Shown: positions 256 to 64,000 of the stretch, in pieces | How positions within the stretch are numbered: the stretch's first letter is position 1 | Layout of the letters: each line of letters opens with the position of its first letter | Assembly: GCA_001771185.1 (NCBI GenBank) | Contig: METB01000001.1 | Span: 503,200 to 567,199, forward strand | Origin: a candidate division Kazan bacterium RIFCSPHIGHO2_01_FULL_44_14 | GTDB taxonomy: Bacteria; Patescibacteriota; Kazan-3B-28 | DNA: 64,000 bases | Reading direction: 5' to 3' | Program-made: the position numbers and the translations under genes | Notes under the pieces: generated by a model | Databases searched by the model: none | The model's input: the letters and a program-made list of their open reading frames with translations, nothing else | Told to the model about the DNA's origin: nothing

Positions 256-1158
256 ATGCAGAAGTCACTTACCGCAGGCCAGATCAAGCAGATCTTGGGC
301 TTTCTGCGTGACGTGCTGATCGTCATCGGTCTGGGTTTCTACCAGGCTCAGGCTTTCATCAACGACAAGACCCGAGTGGACAAGTTCAAGGAGGACTTCA
401 AGGCCCTTCTGAATGCGAGCCTCAAGGTCAACCCGTACATCAAAGAACGGGTCAAGCAGGCCTGGTTCTATCCAAAGAACTGGAAGGTCAAGAATGTCAC
501 CGAGCAACTCGCCAAGCTCACCGAACTCTTCCCGGGTATCGACCTGTCACAGGTCGAGGCTCTGGTTGCCAAGGTGACTTTGCAGAAGTGGCATGACGGC
601 ATCGCCGTTCTGCCCAAGCTCTCGTTTCTGGGACTGCTGTGGGGGATCGCTGATCCCTATGGCAAGGGCTACGGTCTCATCTGCGAGAAGCTGTTCGAGC
701 TGATCGCTGGAAGCCGTGCCTTCCATAACTACCGGGCTGGGCAGATGAACGATCAGTACATTCGCATCATGGAGCAAGTTCGCGAACAGCTGAAAAAGCT
801 GGAAGCGGAAACTCCTGGCGATGTTCTCGTTCTCGCCTTCGACTTCGGCAAGACCTATGCCGGATACAGTCCACGCAACGCTCGCCACGAAGCACTGAAC
901 AACAATCAGCTCCCGCTGATTACCGCTCAGGTGGCGTCCCTTCTGCTGACTATGCCCGACCGTCTCACTGCCTGGGAGCAACTCTTCATCGATTGCTCCG
1001 GCGACGAGTGGGATTGGGACGCTGTTGGCCGCTGGTTGTACTCCGTCTGTTTCCGCTTCGACGACGGCCGGTTGCGCTTCGACAGCGGGAATGCCGACGC
1101 TCCGAGCGACGACTATGGTTCGGTGGTTGCGTCCCTCGGGAGTGTCCCTGGGGTCTAG
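256..1158 (+). CDS. DGR target (variable) protein; its C-terminal ~45 aa are encoded by the variable repeat (VR)
   Basis: 300-aa ORF with RBS agggag upstream. The last 132 nt match the downstream TR except at TR-adenine positions. TR codons in the target frame are mostly AAC, the usual DGR codon. No recognisable N-terminal domain. Confidence 0.75.
   Translation: MQKSLTAGQIKQILGFLRDVLIVIGLGFYQAQAFINDKTRVDKFKEDFKALLNASLKVNPYIKERVKQAWFYPKNWKVKNVTEQLAKLTELFPGIDLSQVEALVAKVTLQKWHDGIAVLPKLSFLGLLWGIADPYGKGYGLICEKLFELIAGSRAFHNYRAGQMNDQYIRIMEQVREQLKKLEAETPGDVLVLAFDFGKTYAGYSPRNARHEALNNNQLPLITAQVASLLLTMPDRLTAWEQLFIDCSGDEWDWDAVGRWLYSVCFRFDDGRLRFDSGNADAPSDDYGSVVASLGSVPGV
1013..1144 (+). repeat. DGR variable repeat (VR)
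   Basis: 132 nt aligning 1:1 with 1479..1610. There are 16 mismatches and every one has A in TR against G/T/C in VR. The last ~38 nt (ctatggttcggtggttgcgtccctcgggagtg) are identical and GC-rich, as expected for an IMH-like 3' end. Confidence 0.85.
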
Positions 1159-1204
1159 ATCCCTTGTCCCTTTTGACCCCTGTGTCCTTGAGTTCGAGTT
1201 TTGT

Positions 1205-1225
1205 GGGGCAGACCTAGTCTGCCCC
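1205..1225 (+). promoter_or_regulatory. GC-rich hairpin (ggggcagac-cta-gtctgcccc) ~60 nt downstream of VR, followed by a T-run; DGR-associated stem-loop and/or terminator of the target gene
   Basis: perfect 9-bp stem with a 3-nt loop, then tttctttttg. Confidence 0.5.
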
Positions 1226-1478
1226 TTTCTTTTTGCCAATATTTAAGTAAGATACCCAAGAGAGTAGGTTTATGTCTTGGGGTTTACGGATCTCAAGCAC
1301 CGAAATTGTGTCTTTCGTGACCCAGTCCGAGTCGGGCATGACTCCGGTCTGCCCGAGAGCACTGACCGATTTTAGACACTCCTTGCCTCTCATAAGTTTG
1401 AGGGTTAGTCCCCACATAAAATACAGCGAAGGCTATCTGACACTTAGCTCGCAGTGACCTGGATAGTGAGGAGGCAAA

Positions 1479-1610
1479 ATTGGGACGCTGATGGCCACTG
1501 GTTGAACTCCGTCTATTTCAACTTCAACGACGGCCAGTTGAACTTCGACAACAGGAATGCCAACGATCCGAACGACAACTATGGTTCGGTGGTTGCGTCC
1601 CTCGGGAGTG
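1479..1610 (+). repeat. DGR template repeat (TR)
   Basis: same length as VR; all 16 differences are adenines in this copy; lies between target and RT in the same orientation as VR. Confidence 0.85.
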
Positions 1611-2117
1611 TTAACGATTAATGCTTCGCATCCAGCCTCCAAGCATTTTGCCTAGCTCCTGGAGGCTGGATTGCAGAGCTAAGTATTGTTTGTCGCTAAT
1701 AGCTTTCACTTCAAAACTCATTCTTACCAATATCTTAATAAGCTCCAGTTTGGAGTTAGCGTTATGCAGGAGTTGAGTTTTTTCAGTTCCAACTGGTAAC
1801 TTGCTGGCACCCAGCAACAACTCCAGCAACTCAAGGGTTTGATGCGTAACATTCTGACCCAAGGTGTGTTTGTCTGCCTTGGGAAATTTGACTAGAATTC
1901 TGTGAAATTGGAGGAAGAAATCATGAACATGCTGAACAATCGGGATTTGCTCAAAAAGTTGCGGGGGGGGGGGCGTTAAAAGGCTTCTTTTCCATAATGG
2001 GGTGTTTGACCAAATTATTTCGTTAGAAAACTTGCTTACGGCCTGGTACGAGTTTCGGAACGGGAAACGCAGTAAGCCAGATGTCCAAGAATTTGAATAT
2101 ACACTTGAGGATAACAT
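1611..2117 (-). CDS. avd: Avd-like accessory variability determinant (four-helix-bundle, 23S-IVS protein-like family); encoded antisense to target/TR/RT
   Basis: ORF residues ~58-168 (FPKADKHTLGQ...LELIKILVRMSFEVKAISDKQYLALQSSLQELGKMLGGWMRSINR) resemble Bordetella phage Avd and the PF05635 pattern, including the C-terminal LG(S/G)W motif. Its stop abuts the TR 3' end. The annotated N-terminal 50 aa overlap the RT start antisense, so the true start is uncertain. An ATG at 1993-1995 (minus strand) would come into frame if the poly-G tract were 10 nt instead of 11. Confidence 0.65.
   Translation of the reverse strand: MLSSSVYSNSWTSGLLRFPFRNSYQAVSKFSNEIIWSNTPLWKRSLLTPPPPQLFEQIPIVQHVHDFFLQFHRILVKFPKADKHTLGQNVTHQTLELLELLLGASKLPVGTEKTQLLHNANSKLELIKILVRMSFEVKAISDKQYLALQSSLQELGKMLGGWMRSINR
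1963..1973. repeat. Homopolymeric G11 tract (encodes PPPP of Avd) between the divergent avd 5' end and the RT start
   Basis: gcgggggggggggcg read directly from the sequence. Confidence 0.9.
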
Positions 2118-3015
2118 ATTCCAGCTACATCGAGAGCTGGTGGCGGGTACCTACCAGCATACGAGTTATCACCAGTTTCGGCTGAGTGATCCGAAGCCCA
2201 GAATCATCAGTAAGGCGACTGTTCGAGATCGGATTCTCCACAAGGCAATCTACCGAATTCTCTATCCGGCTTTTGACACTACCTTTATATATGACAGCTA
2301 TTCTTGCCGGGACTATAAGGGAACTCATGCGGCATTTCTAAGGACTAAACAGATTGCTCGTAAAGTCAGCCGGAACTACACCGGGCAGTGCTGGGCTCTT
2401 AAATGTGATGTTCGTAAATTCTTCGATAGCGTTGATCATGAAATATTGATGGGCTTACTCGAGGAGAGAATCCATGACGAAAAGATGATGGGTTTACTTG
2501 CGGGAATCATTAGAAGCTTTGAGTTTAAGCCTGGGCAGGGGATGCCGCTCGGTAATTTGACCTCTCAGCTCTTTGCTAATGTTTACCTTGACCCGTTAGA
2601 TAAGTTTGTTAAACACCAGCTCAAGATTAAGTACTATCTGCGGTATGCTGATGACTTCATTTTCTTTGCTGACAACCCAGATGAATTGATGGGTTATTTT
2701 ATAGAAGTGGCCAGGTTTCTAAGGACCGAGCTTAAGCTACAAGTCCATCCCAATAAGACCATACTTCGGAAACTCAAGTGGGGGATTGATTTTGTCGGAT
2801 ATATGGCTTTTGCTCATCATGATTTGCCCCGGAGAAAAACAGCAGATCGGATAGTTAGAGGTTTGGAGAGCTCAATCGCCCAAGAGGACGAGAACGTTGA
2901 AAGCCGGTATCAGTCGTATCTAGGGTATCTATCCCATGTCGATAGTTTCGGGCGAAAAAGCCAGTTAGCTAAGATGATGGGGTATGCCACGGATCCGGCT
3001 GAAGTCAAGAAATGA
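2002..3015 (+). CDS. DGR reverse transcriptase
   Basis: RT motifs including YADD (YLRYADDFIFFA) and the DGR-type motif LGNLTSQ in place of group II QGxxxSP. 337 aa with no endonuclease or large maturase domain. GTG start at 2002. Adjacent TR/VR pair. Confidence 0.85.
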   Translation: MFDQIISLENLLTAWYEFRNGKRSKPDVQEFEYTLEDNIFQLHRELVAGTYQHTSYHQFRLSDPKPRIISKATVRDRILHKAIYRILYPAFDTTFIYDSYSCRDYKGTHAAFLRTKQIARKVSRNYTGQCWALKCDVRKFFDSVDHEILMGLLEERIHDEKMMGLLAGIIRSFEFKPGQGMPLGNLTSQLFANVYLDPLDKFVKHQLKIKYYLRYADDFIFFADNPDELMGYFIEVARFLRTELKLQVHPNKTILRKLKWGIDFVGYMAFAHHDLPRRKTADRIVRGLESSIAQEDENVESRYQSYLGYLSHVDSFGRKSQLAKMMGYATDPAEVKK

Positions 3016-3354: not shown

Positions 3355-4251
3355 ATGGCTATAACAAAACCAATTAAAGGTCGTATTCAGGCTCTTAAAG
3401 CCCAGTATGATGTTCTCCGCAAAGGCAAGGACTCGCTTTTGGTTATGATCGATGAGGCGGAAGTACCGGAGAGTGTCTACAACTCCAACGCTATCGAGAA
3501 CTCGACCCTTACCCTCAAGGAAACTGAAAAAATTCTCTTAGATATGGAAGTTGCTCGAGGTGTTTCTTTGCGTGAAGTTTACGAGGCAAAAAATCTTGCT
3601 CGAGTCATCGACTACATTCGCACCAAATCAAAAGAGACGGAAGTAAACCGTGAGCTTATATTACTCCTGCACCAGATGCTTATCGGTGGTATTGATGATA
3701 AAATCGCTGGTCGCTTTCGTGGCCCAGGCGAATATGTCCGAGTTGGTACGCACATTGCTCCTGCTCCAGAACAAGTGGAGAAATTGATTGCATCTATCAT
3801 TACCGAATACACGAGTGATATGTCTGCTTACTTTTTGGACAAGATCTCCAAGTTCCATTTAGAGTTTGAAACTGTTCATCCGTTTAATGATGGCAACGGC
3901 CGTATCGGACGGGTACTTATCAACTATCAGCTCCAACGGCTTGGCTTCCCGAGTGTCATCGTTCGGGATCGGGAGAAAAAAGAATACTACAAGTCCTTTG
4001 GCGATTATCGTGACGACAAAAACACCAAGACTCTTGGAAAGGTAGTCTATCTTGGGTTGATGGAGTCACTTCATAAACGGATTACTTACCTCAAAGGAGA
4101 CAAAGTTATTCGACTTTCTGAATATACAAAAAGCCACGCCAAGTCTGCTTCGGCAATAACAAACGCCGCGCGTCGACAGAACATCCCTGCTTTCAGAGAG
4201 AAGGGTGTTTGGAAGATTCCGGAGAATTTTAAGTACGAAGCAAGCAAATAA
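3355..4251 (+). CDS. fic: Fic-domain protein (AMPylase family), class II with N-terminal inhibitory motif
   Basis: HPFNDGNGRIGR matches the Fic motif HxFx(D/E)GNGRxxR; N-terminal SNAIEN matches the inhibitory (S/T)xxxE(G/N) motif. Confidence 0.85.
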   Translation: MAITKPIKGRIQALKAQYDVLRKGKDSLLVMIDEAEVPESVYNSNAIENSTLTLKETEKILLDMEVARGVSLREVYEAKNLARVIDYIRTKSKETEVNRELILLLHQMLIGGIDDKIAGRFRGPGEYVRVGTHIAPAPEQVEKLIASIITEYTSDMSAYFLDKISKFHLEFETVHPFNDGNGRIGRVLINYQLQRLGFPSVIVRDREKKEYYKSFGDYRDDKNTKTLGKVVYLGLMESLHKRITYLKGDKVIRLSEYTKSHAKSASAITNAARRQNIPAFREKGVWKIPENFKYEASK

Positions 4252-7086: not shown

Positions 7087-7118
7087 ACGGATTGATAGGT
7101 TCGTTGATTCTCTAGGGT

Positions 7119-7190
7119 GGGCTCGTAGCTCAGTGGTAGAGCAGTCCCCTCATAAGGGACTTGTCCTTGGTTCGATCCCAAGCGAGCCCA
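7119..7190 (+). tRNA. tRNA-Met (anticodon CAU), elongator type
   Basis: cloverleaf with acceptor gggctcg/cgagccc, anticodon loop ctcataa and T-loop ttcgatc; G1-C72 is paired; the acceptor stem is extended by a flanking inverted repeat (ctctagggtg...caccctagag). Confidence 0.8.
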
Positions 7191-7361
7191 CCCTAGAGAG
7201 TGAGCAACGCTATCATTATCCATTTCAAATCAAATCGCCCCGATAGTACGGGGACCCCGAAATAGTCTAACGCAGTGAATATTTTGGGGAGAAAGAGAAA
7301 CGATTGAGTTCTAAAAGCATCCTGGCTTGCCGGGATAGCGTAACGCGAAATTGTTTAGACG

Positions 7362-7436
<75 letters not shown>

Positions 7437-7472
7437 GGTAGATAGTAGCAACTGAAATAGATTTTGTCTACC

Positions 7473-7886
7473 CTAACCGAAGAAATAATCCCACCATTTT
7501 TCAGGATTTCCTGGCTGATGTCGGGTTTCTTCAATGGGCTGATCTTTGATATTGCCTTCTTGGAACCGAGCCGTATCATCCTCGGGAATAATTAACACAA
7601 TTTCGCCAGGTTTCTGATAATTTAATTTTGCTCTGGCCTCTTTGTCTTTGAAGGAATCGGTTTTGCGGTAGGCAATCAAATTCTGAAGATATTTATTTTG
7701 GAGTTTTAATTCAGCATTGTTTTCACGTAAATGTGCCAACTCTCTGTCTAAACTGTAGTTTTGCCAAAGTGCCTGGACAGTCGAAACCACCATGTAGACC
7801 GTAATTACAATTCCCACCGTCATAATTGCCCGGATGCGAAGCTCTCGGCCTTGGGGGAGCTGAATTATCGGTAGTTTTTTAGCCAT
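7473..7886 (-). CDS. Septum-formation initiator-like protein (FtsB/DivIC family)
   Basis: single N-terminal TM helix followed by a coiled coil (LAHLRENNAELKLQNKYLQNLI). Confidence 0.5.
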   Translation of the reverse strand: MAKKLPIIQLPQGRELRIRAIMTVGIVITVYMVVSTVQALWQNYSLDRELAHLRENNAELKLQNKYLQNLIAYRKTDSFKDKEARAKLNYQKPGEIVLIIPEDDTARFQEGNIKDQPIEETRHQPGNPEKWWDYFFG

Positions 7887-7922
7887 GGTATCCTAAGTGT
7901 AGCAAGAACTTAAATCAAATTT

Positions 7923-8180
7923 ATGAACCAAGAGAGACAATATTTTGGAGAGCTGGATGGTAGTAATTTGGAGAAGATGCGCAAAACCCCAGAAGAAGTA
8001 GCGGTCGATACAGCGCGAGAGTTATTTGATTTGATTGGGCCTGAAGGGATTAAATTATTATTGGAGCGGTTGTCACCGGTCCAAACTGGAAATAAACCAG
8101 AAGGATCCAAGAGATCATATCGGCGAGAAATGGATGTGGTTTTTGAAGAGTGGAGACGCCTGCTCAAAAAATTGGCATAA
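7923..8180 (+). CDS. hypothetical small protein
   Basis: 85-aa ORF only; a minus-strand ORF of the same size overlaps it, so the strand is uncertain. Confidence 0.25.
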   Translation: MNQERQYFGELDGSNLEKMRKTPEEVAVDTARELFDLIGPEGIKLLLERLSPVQTGNKPEGSKRSYRREMDVVFEEWRRLLKKLA

Positions 8181-8351
8181 TAACCTTCAAAGAACAGGAT
8201 AATTTTGGTGGTAATATTTTTGGTGCCAGCGACAGGACCCTCCTGTGTTTAATCTTATCGCAAGTAAATCACTTGTCTCTTGCGATATAGATATCACTAT
8301 GGAAGGACAGGTTCGCAGCCCAAGGATTACTTGTCCCGTTAAAAATTTTGG

Positions 8352-8423
8352 TGTCAGGGGCGGGATTCGAACCCGCGACCAGCGGCTTATGAGTCCGCTG
8401 CTCTACCACTGAGCTACCCTGAC
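8352..8423 (-). tRNA. tRNA with CAU anticodon, likely tRNA-Ile2 (lysidine-modified) given the adjacent tilS
   Basis: third CAU-anticodon tRNA in the window (acceptor gtcaggg/ccctgac, T-loop ttcgaat); assignment to Ile2 is inference. Confidence 0.65.
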
Positions 8424-15913: not shown

Positions 15914-16115
15914 ACCAAACGCAAGCTGGCGTTTGATCCAGCGTCTCTTTTTGCTTGTCCAAAAAGAGACATGAAAAAAGACACCCAACTTACCAATTGC
16001 TATCTGAAATACAAAATTTTCTTTCTGGCTTTCGGCAAACTCGGAGCTAGCCGGCTCCTCAAACAGTGCCTTCGCTGCGAAAATTTTGCATACAGATAAC
16101 GCAATTGGCTCGATG
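15914..16115. repeat. Dispersed mosaic repeat, family B copy
   Basis: ccaaacgcaagctggcgtttgatccagcgtctctttttgcttgtccaaaaagagaca is near-identical to 63885..63950; ttttctttctggct, caaacagtgccttcgctgcgaaaatt and ttcgatggg segments recur at 32530-32730, 37990-38130 and 53530-53830. Confidence 0.7.
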
Positions 16116-22206: not shown

Positions 22207-22440
22207 ATGATTATTTTCGTTATTTCCGTGCCCGTCCGCAACGATTCGCCAGCCCGTAGTGGATACAACATTTCTGGCGGGCGTAGCGATTCTGGCAGGA
22301 AAACGGGAATCCAGAAAGAAACTGACGTCCTTGCGTCATCCTCGGGGCCACCGCTAGGTGGAGCCCGGGGAACCAGACATAAAAAGATTTTTATTTTCTT
22401 TTCTAAATCCCCGGGTCAAGCCCGAGGATGACTTAAAGGA
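22207..22440. repeat. Composite repeat: family A palindromic element (22231..22312) plus a gtcatcctcgggg...cccgaggatgac hairpin element (22336..22432)
   Basis: 22231..22312 is near-identical to 49186..49267; the 22336..22432 inverted repeat shares gtcatcctcggg / gagcccgggga / aaaaagatttt with 55845..56030. Confidence 0.75.
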
Positions 22441-29644: not shown

Positions 29645-30312
29645 GGTTCTGGTATACCAGTAATCTTTTAAAAGGAGTTTAGATAAAGGGTTTCTAGCCC
29701 CGACTTGTCGGGGTGATAGAGTTCCCCCGGTTCCTGGATGTCAGGAGCTGATTTTTATTTGTTCTCCTTTTTGTAAGATTGTCTGGATGTACTTTTCCAA
29801 CCAGTGAGTACTCAGAGAGCTTTAGTTTTGTTTTTCATCTTGTACCGCAAGGTGCAAGTTATTTACCGTTTTGAAATTTGTTTGTTGCAAAACAAATAAC
29901 TTTTCAGAACTTTTTTGAGAGTTTGATCCTGGCTCAGGATTAACGCTGGCGGCATGCCTAACACATGCAAGTCGAATGCCCAGTGCGTAGCACTGGGAAT
30001 GTCAAATGAAAAATGAAAAATGAAAAATGTTGGTGTCTCTGGCTTCGCCAGGATTCCGGCATTTGTAATTTGTAATTTGTAATTTGGTGTTTCCAATGCT
30101 TCGCATTGGTAGCATGGCAGACGGCTGAGTAACGCGTGGGAACTTACCTCTAAGTTGGGTATAACCTGCCGAAAGGCGGGATAATCCCCAATGTGTTCGC
30201 AAGAACAAAGATTTATCGCTTAGAGAGAGGCCTGCGTCCGATTAGCTTGTTGGTGGGGTAATGGCCTACCAAGGCACTGATCGGTAGGGGGCTTGAGAGG
30301 GTGACCCCCCAG

Positions 30313-31445: not shown

Positions 31446-32211
31446 TTAACGGCTTCCCATGCAAGTAATTGCATGGTAAAATCTAACTATATCGGTGAAC
31501 TCCAAAGTAATTTGGACAACGCCGAGGGAAGTTGGGCTAGAAGCTGGGAATGTCCCAAACAAAGCAAGGAAATCTTATCCGACAGAGTCCGTTGACATCT
31601 CAAGAAGTTGAGGTGATTCAAGGGTGTTTACTCGGAGATGGAACACTTTCCAAGTCAGGAAAGAACTATCGTCTGCGAGTTGAACATAAGTCATCACATT
31701 GGGAGTATGTTGAGTGGAAATTTGCCCTTTTAAGGCGGATTTGCATGAACGAACCTAACTATGTGCCGACGCACGCATCATTGCGTTTTGGCTCAATCGG
31801 ACATCCAGAGATTACTGAGATGAGAAGACAATGGTATCGTCCGTATAAACAGATACCGTCAGGATTAGTGCTGACACCGCTAATGTTAGCGGTTTGGTTT
31901 ATGGATGATGGCACCAAGCATCGAGATACAGTTGATGTATCGGTGCAAAGTTTTTCTAGAGAAAACTTGCAGAGTTTAAGAGATCAGTTGTTGACAATGG
32001 GAGTGCAAACTACCATCAACAGTGATTCTAAGGGCAATCGACTATACTTTATTAAAAGTAGTTACCCAGTATTCAAAAAACTTGTTAAACCATACATTGT
32101 GGAATGTATGGCATATAAGTTGCCTTAACCCCGTAGAGACTATACGTTGGCTCCGTCGAAAGACGGATGAAGACATAGTCCGGCACTCTCGGTAACGAGA
32201 GGTAACAGTCG
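31446..32211 (+). mobile_element. Intron inserted in 16S between GGGGTGAAGT and CGTAACAAGG (E. coli ~1495), carrying a homing endonuclease ORF
   Basis: the exon sequence is interrupted exactly within this conserved 3' stretch; contains the LAGLIDADG ORF. Confidence 0.8.
31550..32128 (+). CDS. LAGLIDADG homing endonuclease, intron-encoded
   Basis: two LAGLIDADG-like motifs, IQGCLLGDGTL and LMLAVWFMDDGTK. Confidence 0.85.
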   Translation: MSQTKQGNLIRQSPLTSQEVEVIQGCLLGDGTLSKSGKNYRLRVEHKSSHWEYVEWKFALLRRICMNEPNYVPTHASLRFGSIGHPEITEMRRQWYRPYKQIPSGLVLTPLMLAVWFMDDGTKHRDTVDVSVQSFSRENLQSLRDQLLTMGVQTTINSDSKGNRLYFIKSSYPVFKKLVKPYIVECMAYKLP

Positions 32212-32400
32212 CGTAACAAGGTATCCGTATCGGAAGGTGCGGATGGAACACCTCCTTTCTAGGGAGAAAAATTTAATGTTTGGCAATCTTGAATAAAGAA
32301 AGTTGAATATTCAAATTCTTCCCGAGAAGAATCGGTCGATTCTGCTATTTCTATAGCGGAATACATAGTTCTCTGGGTACTCATTGGTTAGAAAAATAAC

Positions 32401-36357: not shown

Positions 36358-36981
36358 CTACTTCTCCCAATACTTTTCTTCGATATTTCCAGCAAAGTAT
36401 TCGTAGCGTTCAAGGGTAAAAAGTAAATCCGACAACCGATTGGAAAACTTGCGGATGACTGGGTCAACTTCTTCGGTTTCAGCTAACGAGACAATCATTC
36501 GTTCGGTTCGGCGACAAGTAGTTCTGGCAACTGACAAAAATGCCCCGGCTTTGTTTTGCCCTGGGACAATAAAAGTGGTGATAGGAAGCAAATCGGTATT
36601 GAAATAATCAATGCATTTTTCTAGTCCGGTCACTTCTAGTTCAGTGATGATTGGTAACCGAGCTGGCCCGCCTGCAGCGCTATGCCAGCCCGCAGTAGTT
36701 ACAGCGTTTCTGGCGGGCGTAGCATTGCGGGCAGGGTCAGTATTGTTTAGTGGGCTAGCCAAAATTGAAGCACTATTCATTAATTTATGCTGAATCCGCT
36801 CCAGCAGTTTTTTAATATCAGGCACATTGCTAAAAATTTTGGCCACACCGATGGCGGTATTTAATTCATCAATCGTTCCGTAGGTCTGCACTCTTAAAGA
36901 GGCCTTACTAATCCTGGGGCCGTTAAACAGGCCAGTAGTACCGTCATCGCCTTTGCGGGTATAAATCTTGGGGAGTTCCAT
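36358..36981 (-). CDS. PduO-type ATP:cob(I)alamin adenosyltransferase carrying an in-frame insertion of a family A repeat
   Basis: N-terminus MELPKIYTRKGDDGTTGLFNGPRISK...; ~30 extra residues (NNTDPARNATPARNAVTTAGWHSAAGGPARLP) are encoded by the repeat copy at 36667..36735. Confidence 0.8.
   Translation of the reverse strand: MELPKIYTRKGDDGTTGLFNGPRISKASLRVQTYGTIDELNTAIGVAKIFSNVPDIKKLLERIQHKLMNSASILASPLNNTDPARNATPARNAVTTAGWHSAAGGPARLPIITELEVTGLEKCIDYFNTDLLPITTFIVPGQNKAGAFLSVARTTCRRTERMIVSLAETEEVDPVIRKFSNRLSDLLFTLERYEYFAGNIEEKYWEK
36667..36735. repeat. Family A palindromic repeat copy inside the adenosyltransferase coding sequence
   Basis: cccgcctgcagcgctatgccagcccgcagtagttacagcgtttctggcgggcgtagcattgcgggcagg is near-identical to 53982..54051 and related to 22231..22312 and 49186..49267. 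Confidence 0.8.
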
Positions 36982-49169: not shown

Positions 49170-49335
49170 CAACGTCATTCCCGCACCCGTCCGCAACGAT
49201 TCGCCAGCCCGTAGTGGATACAACATTTCTGGCGGGCGTAGCGATTCGGGCAGGAAGGCGGGAATCCAGAAAGAAAAATAAAAAACTTTTTCCTGTTTCT
49301 GTCTGGATCCCGGCCTTCGCCGGGATGACAAGATA
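49170..49335. repeat. Family A repeat (49186..49267, near-identical to 22231..22312) flanked by gtcattcccgc...gcgggaatcc and gtcatcccggcgaaggccgggatcc hairpin elements, directly upstream of tRNA-Leu
   Basis: a short family A relative (ccagcccgcattgctacgcaaagcgttgctggtggg, 49049..49084) also lies on the other side of the tRNA. Confidence 0.75.
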
Positions 49336-52661: not shown

Positions 52662-54112
52662 AGGGGCAATTAAAAATTACAAATTAAAAATGACAAATGG
52701 GGGATAGGGATAAGTTAAAGGTGAAAAGTCCTCCTCCGTTCTGCTGTACAGCAGAACTACGGAAGGATCTGCGATGAAAAGTTAGGGAAGGGATAATGAC
52801 AAATTAAAAATTAAAAATGGAGGATAAGGGGAGAGTGTATCTTCAATTTAACCAATTTATCCAATCTGTACCAATCTAACCAAAGCATTGTCATCCCGAG
52901 CGTAGTCGAGGGATCTAGTGGCTAGATTTCTTCATCCCGCCAGCTGGCGGAAGTCGGGATGACGCCCATATCTGGTGAGTGTCCAATAATTGGCTCTGGG
53001 AGCGATAAAACTCTTGACTGACCCTGATAAATAGAGTATACTTAAAGGATAACAGAAGAGCGGTCCCTCGGGGGACTCGGGAACAGCGAGGGACAGCCAA
53101 AGGAGGGTGGTTATAGCAAATTAACAAACCACCGAAGAATGCAAAAATCGCAAAAAATCATCGATTTTTCCGGAATGCAGTTTGATGCCAATCGGCGTCC
53201 CAGCTGGCGTTTGCGTCAGAAATCTAGAACCATGCGGTCTCGTAATCATGTTGCTCGTAATGTTCGTACCATTGTTCAAAATATATTCGGAATGTAAGTT
53301 GGCTCTGACTCGTTCAAGCGTGTGGGTTAAAGATCGGTTTGAAAGTTTAGTGGTAGTGATGGAATCATTTACTGCGGGATTAGGACTGTAGTTTTTTTAT
53401 TTTTTCCCGTCATCCTGAACTTGTTTCAGGATCTATTTTTCTTATCCGTCATTCTGGCTTGCGTAGCCCTTCGTAGCTCGGAGAGCGTAGTAGGGTCCAG
53501 AATCTTTTTTATTTTCTTTTTCGAGCGTAGAATGACGCTCGACCCATTGGCACTTTTTGCTTGTCCAATATGCTTTTGCAACGCCTGTGTCGCGTTGCAT
53601 CGACAGCCACTTTGTCTTGGCAAAGTGGCTCAAACCGCTGGCCAACGTCCTCGGACTTATTCACTGACTAAATCTCTGGGTGTTCCCGCCGAACTCCTCC
53701 TCATTTCATTCGTCGTCAAACATGCGGCTTCACCCACCGAGATTTAGTTCAGTTCAGAACAGTCCTCGTCCTAGGGCCAATTAAGAAGAAAACAGAAGAC
53801 ACAGTTTGTTCGATGGGTCTTGGATGAAATTGGCCCTTCAGTGAAGGGTTGTTCTGAATTGAGCTAAATCCTCGTTACAGGGAGATGTTTGAGTCCTGCT
53901 GTCCAGCAGGACGAGTTTCGACCATTAGCAGAAAGAGGATTTAGCCAATGAATAGACCCGGAACTGTCCGGGCCACGGCTTCCCGCCTGCAACGCTATGC
54001 CAGCCCGTAGTAGATACAACGTTTCTGGTGGGAGTAGGCATTGCGGGCAGGTTGTTACTTTCCTTTGGGACGGAAAGTAACGGCGGGTTGAGCGTCGCCT
54101 TGCGCTCAAAAA
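52662..54112. repeat. 1.45-kb non-coding, repeat-dense region (family A copy 53982..54051, family B mosaic 53530..53830, and gtcatYc hairpins at 52885..52960 and 53410..53540)
   Basis: no ORF with protein-like composition; multiple segments match repeats elsewhere in the window. Confidence 0.7.
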
Positions 54113-55801: not shown

Positions 55802-55837
55802 ATTGATCGGATGATATTGTAGCGGTAGATTATTCCT

Positions 55838-56030
55838 TATCCGTCATCCTCGGGCTTGCGTCAGCCCTCCGTAGCTCGGAGAGCGAAGGATGGGAGCCCG
55901 GGGATCCCCGCCCGAATGTACCATTCAGTACGGGCGGGCAGACCAAAAAAGATTTTTTTGGCTTCGTCAGCTGACGAATGACCGATATAGGGTCGTATCC
56001 CCATCTGGGGCGGACCCCCCTTCGCTCAAA
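55838..56030. repeat. gtcatcctcgggc... hairpin repeat element (related to 22336..22432)
   Basis: shared gtcatcctcggg, gagcccgggga and aaaaagattttt segments. Confidence 0.6.
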
Positions 56031-58698: not shown

Positions 58699-58883
58699 TG
58701 GATAAGAATATACTTAAATGTCATTGCGAGGAGTCCCGGTAAACCGGGACGACGTGGCAATCTATTTTTCTTATCCGTCATTCTAAGTTTGTCGAAGAAT
58801 CTAATCCCGGCAGGCCGGGATGTTATATTCCTTAACTTTTAACTTACATCAGACACCGGATGTCTGATGTAATTTTATTATGC

Positions 58884-58908
58884 AAAAGGCGGCCGAAAGG
58901 CCGCCTTT
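58884..58908. terminator. Bidirectional terminator aaaggcggcc-gaaa-ggccgccttt
   Basis: 10-bp GC stem with a GNRA loop. Confidence 0.6.
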
Positions 58909-58958
58909 GAAGTTGACACAAAAAGTGCAGATAACTAATCCTAGTTTTTATTTTAAAT

Positions 58959-59624
58959 CTAATTTTCTGACGGGGGACTATTATATGCCTGCATAATCCC
59001 AGTGTGAAAATCGACTTGGCGGTTAGGTGGGATTTTAAAAACGCGGATGAGGGTTTCAGTTTGAGTCCATTGGAGCAAACGCTCTGGCGGAGTTGGTATT
59101 GGATAACAATCGGTTGGCACATCTTGCAGTTCAAAACAATGCTGAGTGATGACTAAGATGTTATTCGGAGCCGGAATCCAAAACCCACTTGGGTAATGAG
59201 ACGACCGACCAAATGTCATCGGAAAGTACGTGGTTCCGTCTCTGAATACTCGCATTAACCTTAGAATCACTTGCCCCAATGTTTCTTGCTCGGAAAATAC
59301 GACCGAGTTCCATGGCTGGATTCCACCCTGGATACAAAATATCGATTGGCCCCAGAGTCGCAATCTAATCGCCTGATGCCCCGCAGCGGCTTTGTCTGGG
59401 TCGAACTTTGATGGATGCGACAGATAAGTGTTGTTATATGAAGCAAACAATATTGGGCATCCACTTGTTACTACCACCTTTGTGTCATCTTCCAAGATTG
59501 AGATGGGCTCGTTAAAATCCTGCTCTTGTCGATGTTGGGCGACGGCGTTTGTTCGATGCTGGATGTTCTTAAAAAACGGGAACTCTTTTAACAACGATTT
59601 CAAAGTACTCTCGTCCTTGCTCAT
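58959..59624 (-). CDS. hypothetical protein
   Basis: 221-aa ORF with no recognisable motifs. Confidence 0.45.
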   Translation of the reverse strand: MSKDESTLKSLLKEFPFFKNIQHRTNAVAQHRQEQDFNEPISILEDDTKVVVTSGCPILFASYNNTYLSHPSKFDPDKAAAGHQAIRLRLWGQSIFCIQGGIQPWNSVVFSEQETLGQVILRLMRVFRDGTTYFPMTFGRSSHYPSGFWIPAPNNILVITQHCFELQDVPTDCYPIPTPPERLLQWTQTETLIRVFKIPPNRQVDFHTGIMQAYNSPPSEN

Positions 59625-59853
59625 GTTAGGAATCTCCCTTCAATGACACTCCGAACTTCGGAGGAGCTTGTCATCTAGTCAGTTTGGTAAGGTGCTGACA
59701 ACCTGGATTCTTTAGCATACACCCGTCTTGGGGCATCCCGTAATCAATAAGGTTGCTATATCTGGTGGGGCATGGTAAGGTGTGTGCACGCAATCCTGCT
59801 GGACGGCAGGATTGGGAATAGTTGTTATATTAGGTTAAGTAGGGAGATTTCAT

Positions 59854-60039
59854 ATGAACGACGAAATGAATACGACTCCGGCTGACGATCAAGCTACTCC
59901 GGCCGTGTCGGCTGATGCCGAGATGGAGGCCGAGGTGACGGCAGAGGAAGCTGAAGCCGAGGCCGAGACCCCAGTGGCCGAGGCAGTTGAGGCCGAAGAG
60001 GTTTCGGAAGAAGGTTCCGACGAAGTAGCAACAGCTTAA
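59854..60039 (+). CDS. hypothetical highly acidic small protein (E/A-rich)
   Basis: RBS ggagat before the ATG; hairpin downstream at 60048..60084. Confidence 0.35.
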   Translation: MNDEMNTTPADDQATPAVSADAEMEAEVTAEEAEAEAETPVAEAVEAEEVSEEGSDEVATA

Positions 60040-60152
60040 GTAGTTATCTCTCGAGAGGGACCCAGTGGGTTCCCTCTCGACGACCGTTGGCTAAGCCAAG
60101 TTTCGCTTTGCTCAACCAAGCGGTCTGCTCTCCCTCCCTTTTGGGACGAAGA

Positions 60153-60190
60153 GAAAAAACCGTTCTGCCATATGGCAGAACGGTTTTTTT
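60153..60190. terminator. Bidirectional terminator aaaaaaccgttctgccatatggcagaacggttttttt
   Basis: 11-bp stem flanked by A6 and T7. Confidence 0.65.
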
Positions 60191-60340
60191 GGTTGGACTT
60201 GACGGTGGGCAAATTCAACCATATCTTGGGTTAGCGGACAGAGGGTTCCTGTTCGTTGTACCTCCTATCCCTCGGCGCTAACAAGCGTCGAGGGTGTTTT
60301 TAATGTGCTACAATAATTCGTCGAGTTGTAATTTACCAAT

Positions 60341-60616
60341 TTGCAGGAGGAAATGGGCATGAATTTTGCTCAAGTTGAGATGCAGACCAAGTTGGCCAAG
60401 ACCCCTGAAGAACTTTTGGCTTTGCTGACGGAAGTGACGGCTCCGATTTCCTGGTTGGGTTTCAAACAGTCGGGCGAAGCATCGAAAGTGCTTAAACTGA
60501 TCGAGAATCGCAATCGTCAAGTCGCCGAAGCGAGAACACAGGCAATCGAGATTGCCAGGCAAGAGGTACAGAACAAGATTGGTCACATTCGAAAGTTCCC
60601 GAATGCTTACAGCTAA
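60341..60616 (+). CDS. hypothetical protein
   Basis: 91-aa ORF preceded by caggaggaaatgg. Confidence 0.45.
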   Translation: MQEEMGMNFAQVEMQTKLAKTPEELLALLTEVTAPISWLGFKQSGEASKVLKLIENRNRQVAEARTQAIEIARQEVQNKIGHIRKFPNAYS

Positions 60617-60780
60617 ATGGACGAGGGGACTTTTCTGTCACGTTGGGGTCGTGATATAGTGAGACCGTAGTTTGGTTTATCTCCCTTTCCCTGCATTTTG
60701 CACCTACATCCACGCCCCGTTGACCTCGCCGTAATCTTCTTATGGCGGGGTCTTCTTCTGGCTCTGGAAGCGGATAATGC

Positions 60781-60808
60781 TTGACAGAGGCGGGGATAGG
60801 TGTATAAT
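60781..60808 (+). promoter_or_regulatory. Consensus sigma70 promoter (TTGACA - 16 bp - TATAAT)
   Basis: perfect -35 and -10 hexamers read directly from the sequence. Confidence 0.6.
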
Positions 60809-60814
60809 GGGGGT

Positions 60815-61215
60815 ACTTTATTGTTCCTTAAGGAGGCAAAGGTGATGAGAAGAATACGAACGTGTGAGTCGGCAACCGCCGGCACACAAAATGGTTACAG
60901 CATCAGGACCTAACGATCGGTCCGCGACGGGTAGCAACTAACTAACGGCCACACCGAGTATCGGATGCAAACTTTATCGCGCCACTCGGTCGGATCATGA
61001 TAGGCTACCCACAGTTTCTGATTTTTCACATTAGTTTCTGATTTTTCACATTTTTCGACTTTCGTTCTTCGTACAATTCTTTTCTTTTGGAGGTCACGTA
61101 CATCATGCGTAGAATCTTCAAGTTTCCTGTCTAAAGCGGGATGCCACCCGCGAAGAAAATGGCAAATTGGTTTGATTGAACATGACCCGCTGGCAATCGT
61201 CAGCGGGTTTTTTCT
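60815..61215 (+). ncRNA. Candidate ~400-nt non-coding RNA or long regulatory leader
   Basis: spans from just after the consensus promoter to the intrinsic terminator acccgctg-gcaatcgtc-agcgggttttttc at 61185..61215; contains a 22-codon ORF (60845..60913) with RBS aaggagg and a 2 x 20-bp tandem repeat agtttctgatttttcacatt (61003..61042). Confidence 0.4.
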
Positions 61216-61229
61216 TGTATGATTAATTT

Positions 61230-61550
61230 ATGAATCCAAAACTTTTATGGATAGTGGGAGGAGTTGTAATTGTTGGTGTGGGAATTTGGTTTGTGGTTAG
61301 GACCAATCGGTCGGAAGCGGAGAATCCGCCAAAAGACGATATTGCAACCGAGCAGGATGCATCGCCGTCAACTAATTCGACGCCAACCTCATCTAACAAT
61401 GCTCAACCGACTAACACGGCTAAATCCACGACTACTTATTTGCCAAGTCAAACGCCGTGGGCGCAAGGGCCAAGTGACCAAACCATTCCGTCATCGAACG
61501 GAGGAACCATTCCACAACAAACTCCATGGTCGCAAGGGCCAAGTGATTAA
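61230..61550 (+). CDS. hypothetical membrane-anchored low-complexity protein with QTPW(A/S)QGPSD repeats
   Basis: N-terminal TM helix; S/T/P/Q-rich tail. Confidence 0.45.
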   Translation: MNPKLLWIVGGVVIVGVGIWFVVRTNRSEAENPPKDDIATEQDASPSTNSTPTSSNNAQPTNTAKSTTTYLPSQTPWAQGPSDQTIPSSNGGTIPQQTPWSQGPSD

Positions 61551-61676
61551 TAGTTCCAGGGTTGGTTATTGTGGTTGGACTTTTTCAGGTGAAGGAGTTA
61601 GTCATGGGATAGAGGTAAAATTAGGACGATGCAAGATAAATCTTGGGGATTGACAATATAGCAATTTTGTTATATT

Positions 61677-61982
61677 ATGAAAATAGAGCTGAAAATCATA
61701 GAATACGTTGCGGACTTTTTGAATGACTTGCCAGCGGAGTTGTACGCTAGGTGTGTGAAAAAGTTAAAACTTTTTGAAGAATATGGTTTTTTCCTGACGA
61801 ATACGGATCTTAAGAAGATTAATAAAAATCTCTGGGAGTTGCGAACGAAAAATACTCGGATTTTAATGGGCAAAACGGGAGATACCATCTGGGCAGTACA
61901 CGCTTTTTATAAAAAGACCAATAAAACTCCCAAGAAGGAAATAGATTTAGCTGGGAAACGTTTAGAGAAGTTAAAAAAATGA
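61677..61982 (+). CDS. Type II toxin, Gp49-like / HigB-RelE superfamily
   Basis: WELR...ILMGKTGDTIWAVHAFYKKTNKTPKKEI resembles phage Gp49-like killer proteins (PF05973 pattern); the stop overlaps the next gene's start. Confidence 0.65.
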   Translation: MKIELKIIEYVADFLNDLPAELYARCVKKLKLFEEYGFFLTNTDLKKINKNLWELRTKNTRILMGKTGDTIWAVHAFYKKTNKTPKKEIDLAGKRLEKLKK

Positions 61983-62641: not shown

Positions 62642-62875
62642 ATCCGCCTACCAATTCACCCCAAAGGGGCCCCGTTGGGGCTAAATCACTATTTCACTAA
62701 ATCACTTTTTCACCCTTTAGGACAAGCCAAACAGTATTGTCACCCTGAACTGACCGGCCTACGGTCATCCCGAGTCCGCCAGCTGGCGGATCGAGGGATC
62801 TATCTTGTTTCAGGGTCTATTTGTGTATAGGATGGGGGCTGGGGGATATATGAGTAACCCCGAGGAGAAACAAAG

Positions 62876-63784
62876 ATGGAATTATTATGGAGTTTGGGCT
62901 GGTTGGTGTTGGTAGTTATATTGGTATCAATCAAGCAGATTAACCAATATCAAAAAGGGGTGAAGTTTACGCTGGGGAGATACTCGGGAATTATGCAACC
63001 GGGGTGGCGGTTAATTTTTCCAATTTTCCAATCGTATCGGAAAATAGACATTCGAGTAAAAGCGGTAGATGTGCCAACTCAAGAGGCCATCACTAAAGAT
63101 AATGTCTCGGTGAGTGTGAATGCAGTAATTTATTATCGGATTAAACAAGCCGACAAAGCGGTGTTGGAAGTCGAGAATTTTTTCTATGCGATGTCGCAAT
63201 TGGCGCAAACCACCATGCGGAATGCAGTTGGCCAAGTCAGTTTGGATGATTTATTGTCGGAACGCGATCGAGTGTCGGATCAAATCAGAAATATTGTGGA
63301 GAAGGCCTCTGACCCATGGGGAATCGAAGTAATGAATGTCGAGTTGAAAGACATCACTTTGCCAGAGGAAATGAAACGAGTAATTGGCAAACAAGCCGAA
63401 GCCGAGCGCGAGAAGCGAGCGGTAATTATTAAAGCCGAAGGTGAAGTGGCGGCATCGGAAAATATGGCGAAAGCCGCTCGGATGTTATCGGGTGCTGATG
63501 GGGCTTTGCATCTACGGACATTGCAATCGATTAATGATATTAGTTCAGATCAGTCCAATACCATCGTGTTTATGGTGCCAATGGAAGCATTGAGGGCGTT
63601 GGAGGGGTTGGCTAAAAAAATGAATATACCTACTCTTGATGGAGGGACGAAGGGTGTTCCTCCCTCAACGGATAGTGGGCAAAAGCCCAGTTCCGGCAGG
63701 CCGGAACCAAGCTATCCTGCTCCCACCTCCACTTTAGGGACAGCAGACAAGTCGAAAGAGCCGGCGCAAGAGCCACTAGTTTGA
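62876..63784 (+). CDS. SPFH/band-7 (stomatin/prohibitin-like) membrane protein
   Basis: N-terminal TM helix; SPFH core (YQKGVKFTLGRYSGIMQPGWRLIFP...); coiled-coil region. Confidence 0.8.
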   Translation: MELLWSLGWLVLVVILVSIKQINQYQKGVKFTLGRYSGIMQPGWRLIFPIFQSYRKIDIRVKAVDVPTQEAITKDNVSVSVNAVIYYRIKQADKAVLEVENFFYAMSQLAQTTMRNAVGQVSLDDLLSERDRVSDQIRNIVEKASDPWGIEVMNVELKDITLPEEMKRVIGKQAEAEREKRAVIIKAEGEVAASENMAKAARMLSGADGALHLRTLQSINDISSDQSNTIVFMVPMEALRALEGLAKKMNIPTLDGGTKGVPPSTDSGQKPSSGRPEPSYPAPTSTLGTADKSKEPAQEPLV

Positions 63785-63884
63785 TCTTATTGCCTGAGCT
63801 TGTCGAAGGCCTACCTATTCGTCATCCCGGACCTGATCCGGGATCCATTCTCCAAGCGCCTGCGCGGCGCTTGACCCGCGGGAA

Positions 63885-64000
63885 CCAAACGCAAGCTGGC
63901 GTTTGATCCAGCGTCTCTTTTTGCTTGTCCAAAAAGAGACATAAAAAGGACACCCAATTCACAAATTTCTAGCCAAAATAGAAAATCACCCTTTCTGGAC
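63885..64000. repeat. Family B repeat copy (near-identical to 15914..15990) running to the window end
   Basis: ccaaacgcaagctggcgtttgatccagcgtctctttttgcttgtccaaaaagagaca. Confidence 0.7.

Follow-up and report, generated by a model that had tools for sequence, protein, structure and literature searches.

The 64,000-nucleotide stretch of DNA analysed here (the window), from a groundwater Kazan bacterium, carries, ahead of an orphan gene for a protein of 106 amino acids, a consensus sigma-70 promoter and a strong intrinsic terminator, and the question is what the unit between them might be for. A preliminary description, made by eye, had considered a standalone small RNA, a dual-function RNA, and a leader-peptide or attenuator-type leader of the downstream gene. 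From the arrangement of the elements in Table 1, we tentatively propose that 60781-61216 would specify a leader, or terminated RNA, which gates transcription into the 106-amino acid gene; we hold this reading to be possible rather than probable. The sequence elements, the polymorphisms, the mosaic structure and the lack of homologues are shown by the data; transcription, termination and the gating role we infer from the sequence.

The promoter was found where it had first been placed, about 400 nucleotides upstream of the terminator. Neither strand of the 64 kb has another perfect TTGACA-N16-18-TATAAT; 0.06 such sites were expected, and 6 of 100 shuffled sequences had one. Transcription is predicted to start at about A60815. 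An allele on contig L012 has an intact TATAAT and intact spacing, with TTTACA as its -35 hexamer, and its spacer and both flanks have diverged; since the -10 hexamer is perfectly kept inside a diverged patch, we argue that the promoter is probably functional. In the allele of contig L004 there are two SNPs, both in the spacer. A plus-strand transcript appears plausible, because variant alleles keep the promoter hexamers while spacer and flanks diverge, and because the plus strand folds better than the minus strand.

At the other end, the terminator (-20 kcal/mol) consists of a stem followed by TTTTTTCTT up to 61216. It would serve the plus strand only, since no U-run follows the stem on the complementary strand. 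The next ATG, at 61230, confirms that the terminator ends 15 bp before the start of the following gene. A terminator-like hairpin that closes the upstream gene is kept in all variant contigs and marks the left boundary of the unit. The proposed sigma-70 transcription unit would start at about 60815 and end at about 61213-61216, and its product would be a non-coding RNA of approximately 400 nt, or approximately 380 nt in strains with one copy of the 20-mer.

Table 1. Features of the unit and its surroundings, with the intergenic repeats of the window (positions are those of the window)
Feature	Position	Strand	Description
Terminator-like hairpin closing the upstream 85-aa orphan gene (60359-60616)	60722..60752	+	13 pairs, 7 of them G-C; T/C-rich tail
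Sigma-70 promoter TTGACA-16-TATAAT	60781..60808	+	12/12 match; TTGACA 60781-60786, 16-nt spacer, TATAAT 60803-60808; G-rich discriminator GGGGGT
AAGGAGG (60830-60836) and 22-codon ORF (ATG 60845, stop 60911-60913)	60830..60913	+	product MRRIRTCESATAGTQNGYSIRT
10-bp interrupted inverted repeat/hairpin	60863..60888	+	UGUG-A-GUCGGC / AACC loop / GCCGGC-A-CACA; overlooked in the preliminary description
Stably folded domain (predicted)	60905..61012	+	5-bp hairpin and ~85-nt branched hairpin closed by GGGUAGC/GCUACCC; overlooked in the preliminary description
Tandem 20-mer AGTTTCTGATTTTTCACATT x 2.0	61013..61052	+	100% identical copies; predicted to be largely unstructured
GGAGG (61090-61094) and putative 9-codon ORF MRRIFKFPV (ATG 61106, TAA 61133-61135)	61090..61135	+	overlooked in the preliminary description
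Intrinsic terminator	61184..61216	+	11-bp stem 61184-61209 (7 G-C), tetraloop, U6CUU
Orphan 106-aa protein gene	61230..61550	+	N-terminal membrane helix, S/T/P/Q-rich tail, internal QTPW[AS]QGPSD repeat
Promoter and palindromic operator of the Gp49/HTH toxin-antitoxin pair	61645..61680	+	first rightward DNA conserved in related genomes
Intergenic repeat family 1	22218-22321, 49173-49276, 36667-36735, 53982-54051		
Intergenic repeat family 2	15914-16017 / 63884-63986		
Intergenic repeat family 3	53431-53455, 55833-55888, 58760-58784		

The 106-amino acid protein, named hypothetical protein at NCBI, has no homologue but itself among 5.8 billion proteins, and its only matches to families were sub-threshold, low-complexity ones. 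Its gene has neither a Shine-Dalgarno sequence nor a promoter of its own. No promoter-like site was found on the plus strand between 60809 and 61230, so that transcription of the gene must come from upstream, past the terminator. Since the downstream gene lacks its own promoter, a leader is the best of the three options first put forward; the attenuator pairing that one of them implies proved no better than chance, as set out below. We propose that the unit would be the only route of RNA polymerase to the gene and that the strong terminator would stop most transcripts just short of it. The terminated leader RNA would then be the abundant product, and the gene would be reached by a trickle of read-through transcripts only. 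We take the gating to be constitutive, because nothing points to a ligand- or translation-controlled switch.

This arrangement resembles that of other terminator-ended 5' leaders, in which a promoter is followed by a structured untranslated region of several hundred nucleotides, a strong terminator no more than 15 nt from the start codon, and a gene without a promoter of its own. Unlike attenuator and riboswitch leaders, the unit has no recognisable sensor domain (the Rfam search was negative), no statistically supported antiterminator and no conservation; moreover, the gene that follows is an orphan, it lacks a Shine-Dalgarno sequence, and the leader is a recent mosaic. The missing Shine-Dalgarno sequence also counts against the leader reading itself, as the gene may be poorly expressed or not at all, which would weaken the idea that it is controlled.

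Folding of 60815-61215 gave -120.3 kcal/mol for the plus strand (z = -2.7, with none of 100 shuffles as good) and z = -0.95 for the minus strand. The main source of this signal is the domain at 60905-61012, with -36.8 kcal/mol against -26.3 +/- 3.1 for shuffles (z = -3.3), and this domain is invariant in all contigs. The repeat and the pyrimidine-rich stretch at 61013-61100 gave z = 0.0. In the minimum-energy fold, purine-rich and pyrimidine-rich low-complexity sequences also form a long-range helix (60847-60860 with 61066-61084); it joins two evolutionary segments and is regarded as fortuitous. A mere spacer would not need to fold as well as 60905-61012 is predicted to do, which weighs against the leader reading; because of this domain, a genuinely new RNA retains a small probability.

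Known families do not account for the RNA body. At gathering scores, Rfam 15 gave no match in 60600-61400, neither to a riboswitch nor to a housekeeping RNA. At E<=10, the same interval gave two chance-level matches (E = 1.7 and 2.5; 14-16 bits where the thresholds are 49.5 and 70), one of which merely matches the terminator. ARAGORN detected no tmRNA in the window, permuted forms included, and no tRNA in the unit, the 3' end of which is an intrinsic terminator and not a T arm. With both programs negative, the first impression that tmRNA, RNase P, SRP and 6S hallmarks are missing has stood. The RNA segment had no match by blastn among 50,697 phage and 72,556 plasmid records, none in a 24-mer scan of IMG/VR, and no homologue in related Kazan genomes. 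A literature search on RNAs of Kazan and other candidate-phyla-radiation bacteria returned nothing relevant. Judged by these searches, the unit does not represent a conserved RNA family but is an orphan example of an ordinary kind of element.

Perhaps the approximately 400-nt terminated transcript is itself functional, as a standalone trans-acting small RNA to which the 106-amino acid gene is a mere neighbour. We consider this unlikely but worth entertaining. Promoter and terminator bracket the transcript, the strong terminator would end most transcripts there, and the folding is strand-specific. Such an RNA would combine the structured 5' domain with a pyrimidine-rich, single-stranded segment (61053-61089) that could pair with purine-rich ribosome-binding sites. 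However, promoter and body do not go together (L012 has only the promoter, and contig L008 only the body), no homologues were found in related Kazan genomes or elsewhere searched, and no target can be proposed. In addition, the pyrimidine tract is predicted to pair with 60847-60860, which lies in the non-conserved left segment.

The unit contains two short open reading frames with possible translation signals. AAGGAGG lies 8 nt 5' of the ATG of the 22-codon ORF, and it is a canonical Shine-Dalgarno sequence here because it is matched by the 3' end of the 16S rRNA, which carries CACCTCCTT at 32246-32259 and terminates in CACCUCCUU. The ORF and its well-placed ribosome-binding site are therefore real as sequence elements. 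A functional role for them could not be upheld, since the ORF spans a recombination joint at about 60873-60876 and, in L008, a tRNA-Met stands in place of its 5' part, ribosome-binding site and start included. The ORF is probably what is left of a translation start that became fused to foreign DNA. That a 22-residue peptide is encoded, alone or within a dual-function RNA, seems highly improbable. The canonical signal directly after a strong promoter, with its match to the anti-Shine-Dalgarno of the 16S rRNA, would favour a peptide, but the ORF crosses the joint, L008 lacks its start codon, and all window-type copies are identical; the peptide itself is hydrophilic, without a recognisable motif or a family match.

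The second, 9-codon ORF has a spacing of 11 nt between Shine-Dalgarno and AUG, and a local hairpin is predicted to enclose both. In a fold computed without the terminator's 3' arm, the region 61128-61141, which includes the stop codon of this ORF, pairs with 9 of the 11 bases of the 5' arm. The unit might on this ground be a leader-peptide attenuator, in which translation of the 9-codon ORF (61106-61135) chooses between the terminator and an antiterminator (61128-61141 with 61186-61195) and thereby controls the 106-amino acid gene. The pairing near the stop codon and the GGAGG upstream of the ORF are consistent with this, but 27.5% of shuffled upstream sequences sequester the 5' arm equally well, the ORF lacks a series of regulatory codons, and the gene that follows is not a biosynthetic one. 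We consider the attenuator quite improbable. Because of the result with shuffled sequences, and because the signals of the ORF are buried in a hairpin, attenuation control is not claimed.

On the minus strand, a stop-free frame of 105 codons has no start codon before 61029. Six-frame translated pieces of the region, this frame included, gave no Pfam match above noise, and a degraded protein gene was rejected on that result and on a 20-nt indel that breaks the frame. A JGI gene call of 493 nt with a 21-residue product runs across the RNA segment (L003:905-1397 and L010:2-359; window 60704-61196, minus strand) and is probably an annotation artefact.

The 2 x 20-bp tandem repeat of the preliminary description is present at 61013-61052, and the 20-mer does not recur elsewhere in the window, even with 3 mismatches. 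It loses its standing as a special feature on comparison of strains: at least 10 contigs have two copies, and five independent contigs have one (L004, L008, L027, L036 and L037, the last also with a SNP). Because the copy number is polymorphic, the pair would be a recent slippage-type duplication and not a fixed functional array. The 20-nt indel is not a multiple of 3, and 61013-61052 is therefore taken to be non-coding on both strands.

A tandem repeat between promoter and terminator invites comparison with type III toxin-antitoxin loci. In ToxIN, CptIN and TenpIN, a constitutive promoter, tandem direct repeats and a terminator are directly followed by a gene (PMC3401426), and the order of elements here is the same as in ToxIN loci. 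The repeats would be the RNA antitoxin, the terminator would set the ratio of antitoxin to toxin, and the downstream protein would be the toxin. We regard this as extremely improbable. The antitoxin repeats of the known families measure 31 to 62 nt, in at least 1.9 copies (PMC3401426); the repeat here has 20 nt and a variable number of one or two copies, with 131 nt between repeats and terminator. The downstream product is no endoribonuclease-type toxin but a membrane-anchored low-complexity orphan, which gave no Pfam or PADLOC match to a toxin of the ToxN, CptN or TenpN type.

Identical contigs originate from Rifle-type groundwater metagenomes, and population variants are the main evidence on the history of the unit. 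Among strains with 1-5% difference from the window on both flanks, no base is substituted in 60795-61969; in L004 and L027 this extends to 62472. The only variation there is in the number of 20-mer copies and in one position within the repeat of L037. On this pattern, the substitution-free block is the signature of a recent exchange between strains. Several contigs break off here, at 60764, 60815 (twice), 60838 and 60848, which is what a branch point in the assembly graph would produce. L014 diverges just 5' of the promoter, and L012 keeps a left segment with a recognisable promoter and then continues into different downstream sequence; the promoter is part of the left segment. The right segment and the 106-amino acid gene were found together in every contig.

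In L004 (L004:3585-4043, compared with window 62642-62876), a TspO/MBR gene comes straight after the second HTH gene, at the place where the window has a Band_7 gene. The two diverge right after the HTH stop codon, with dense SNPs in the last 150 nt of the HTH gene, and the switch is another recombination boundary of the same variable block.

The left edge of the right segment was located with L008, a contig of 2.9 kb and the only one known with this arrangement. In place of the DNA that precedes 60876, L008 has the body of an ordinary elongator-type tRNA-Met(CAU) gene. The right arm of the inverted repeat, CCGCCGGCACAC (60876-60887), matches without a difference the 3' acceptor end of this tRNA and the bases that follow it, and CA at 60873-60874 is likewise common to the window and the tRNA end. 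In the window, the breakpoint falls within the AACC loop of the inverted repeat. Because of this joint, the promoter, the Shine-Dalgarno sequence and the first ten or so codons of the 22-codon ORF do not belong to the same evolutionary unit as the rest. The unit is a young mosaic: these three elements are part of the left segment, and the right segment runs from 60876 rightwards, always with the 106-amino acid gene and in one variant joined to the tRNA-Met 3' end. We propose that the two were assembled by recombination of recent date, at an att-like joint in the loop of the inverted repeat, with the 22-codon ORF as a by-product of the fusion and the pair of 20-mers as a recent slippage duplication.

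The T arm and acceptor end of the L008 tRNA occur in tRNA-Met genes of several phyla. A scan of genomes with the tRNA-Met 3' end returned seven loci, none from Kazan bacteria and none followed by sequence resembling the RNA segment. A 21-mer taken from the joint had no match in a metagenome scan, and as JGI contigs carry it, the scanned collection evidently lacks these samples. Beyond the shared core, on its left side, the window and the L008 tRNA are not significantly similar. A decayed tRNA-Met between promoter and joint was rejected, because local and anchored global alignments were no better than those of shuffles or random genomic windows (p = 0.24-0.96). The window itself has three tRNA genes with a CAU anticodon within 1.3 kb (7118-8423), at 7118 (+), 7362 (-) and 8349 (-). 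None of them matches the tRNA-Met of L008, which would therefore be a fourth CAU tRNA or a foreign gene.

By its structure, the junction at 60876 looks like an att-like recombination joint. As at att sites in the 3' ends of tRNA genes, the breakpoint lies exactly at a core of 12-15 nt identical to the tRNA 3' end, dyad symmetry is found at the breakpoint with direct repeats close by, and the gene content varies among strains and includes a toxin-antitoxin pair. Unlike at such sites, no integrase gene and no second att copy accompany the core, and the tRNA-linked form is known from the one contig; these points also weigh against the mosaic and att part of our proposal. Proteins encoded between 58959 and 63784 contain no integrase or recombinase domain. 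Matches to a second copy of the core within the 64 kb are at chance level, and the best of them lies inside a coding gene.

A distinctly unlikely alternative is that the region acts at the level of DNA, as the scar or attachment region of an integrative element which targets the tRNA-Met 3' end, with the promoter-terminator bracket a coincidence. The core site would then be the inverted repeat at 60863-60888, and the 20-mers would be arm-type binding sites for a recombinase. The tRNA identity at the breakpoint in the loop, the direct repeats 125 nt from the core, the variable hot spot with its recently exchanged, substitution-free block, and the several contigs that end at 60764-60848 would all suit such a region. 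Against it stand the lack of a recombinase domain in any flanking protein (the 221-amino acid neighbour matches no solved structure), the lack of a second core copy in the window, repeats present in only one or two copies and in variable number, and a tRNA joint found in one contig only.

Returning to the leader reading, the unit and its gene lie in a part of the chromosome that is not shared with relatives. Related Kazan genomes have the gene order TyrRS - PBP1A - Gp49 - HTH, with Gp49-type toxin homologues of 70-87% identity, and PBP1A and Gp49 are separated by 32 nt in L028 and by 343 unrelated nt in L032; the Gp49/HTH pair of a third relative occurs in a different context. Upstream of Gp49, only the toxin-antitoxin promoter/operator, from about 61645, is common to the relatives and the window. 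We therefore describe 58699-61644 as a lineage-specific insert of about 2.95 kb; on this comparison, the 61645 region is its right edge. The insert sits between PBP1A and the conserved Gp49/HTH pair, is missing from related Kazan genomes, and comprises a 221-amino acid gene on the minus strand, genes of 61 and 85 amino acids, the RNA unit and the 106-amino acid gene. No domain was found in any of its proteins. The 221-amino acid protein is a near-orphan with only three distant homologues. No target-site duplication was found around the insert, and a search of IMG/VR for relatives of Gp49 returned none.

The promoter of the Gp49/HTH pair (TTGACA-17-TATTAT) overlaps the palindrome CAATATAGCAATTTTGTTATATTA, which is presumably an autoregulatory operator, and has 93-97% identity in all related genomes examined. 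A partial copy of this promoter/palindrome motif occurs upstream of the 61-amino acid gene (59746-59838).

The right segment (60876-61215), which includes the stable domain at 60905-61012, could also be a new structured RNA that travels as a cassette with the membrane-protein gene, by way of a recombination site mimicking the tRNA-Met 3' end. It would be an RNA-based addiction or defence module beside the Gp49/HTH pair and would control or neutralise that protein. We find this very doubtful.

The window has several other features. A complete diversity-generating retroelement occupies 256-3015, with a target ORF at 256-1158 that contains the variable repeat (1013-1145), a template repeat at 1479-1611 (133 nt, with 16 mismatches, all at template adenines), a bAvd-like gene at 1611-2117 (-) and a reverse transcriptase gene at 2002-3015; a Fic-domain gene follows at 3355-4251. 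The RNA segment was rejected as a template of this kind. The mark of such a template is a stretch of approximately 100-150 nt that recurs in a target gene and differs there at adenines; no second copy of the RNA segment occurs in the window, and the real TR/VR pair of the window is the one just given.

The 16S rRNA gene extends from 29911 to about 32259. Its Rfam match stops at 31492 and its true 3' end (GTAACAAGGTATCC...GGAACACCTCCTTTCT) lies at about 32210-32259, which indicates an insertion of approximately 700 nt near the 3' end. Two blocks of heptamer repeats are located near the 5' end (30004-30029 and 30061-30086). No 23S rRNA was found in the window. The three families of short intergenic repeats in Table 1 (70-104 nt, 79-93% identical, partly palindromic) are unrelated to the RNA unit; one copy adjoins a tRNA-Leu gene and another comes directly after the PBP1A stop codon. 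Two of the families have copies in 52662-54112, a 1.45-kb interval that separates recG from the tyrosyl-tRNA synthetase gene and has no convincing ORF; Rfam gave no match there even at E<=1.

If the leader reading is true, the unit would be one more lineage-specific terminated leader or small RNA, situated in a candidate-phyla-radiation genome at a variable hot spot that is flanked by toxin-antitoxin genes. The locus also carries a caution, in that recent recombination can bring together promoter, ribosome-binding site and terminator signals of textbook perfection, and population variants from metagenome assemblies can reveal which of such signals are incidental. The tRNA-Met-like joint could help to map the movement of gene cassettes in uncultivated, reduced genomes.
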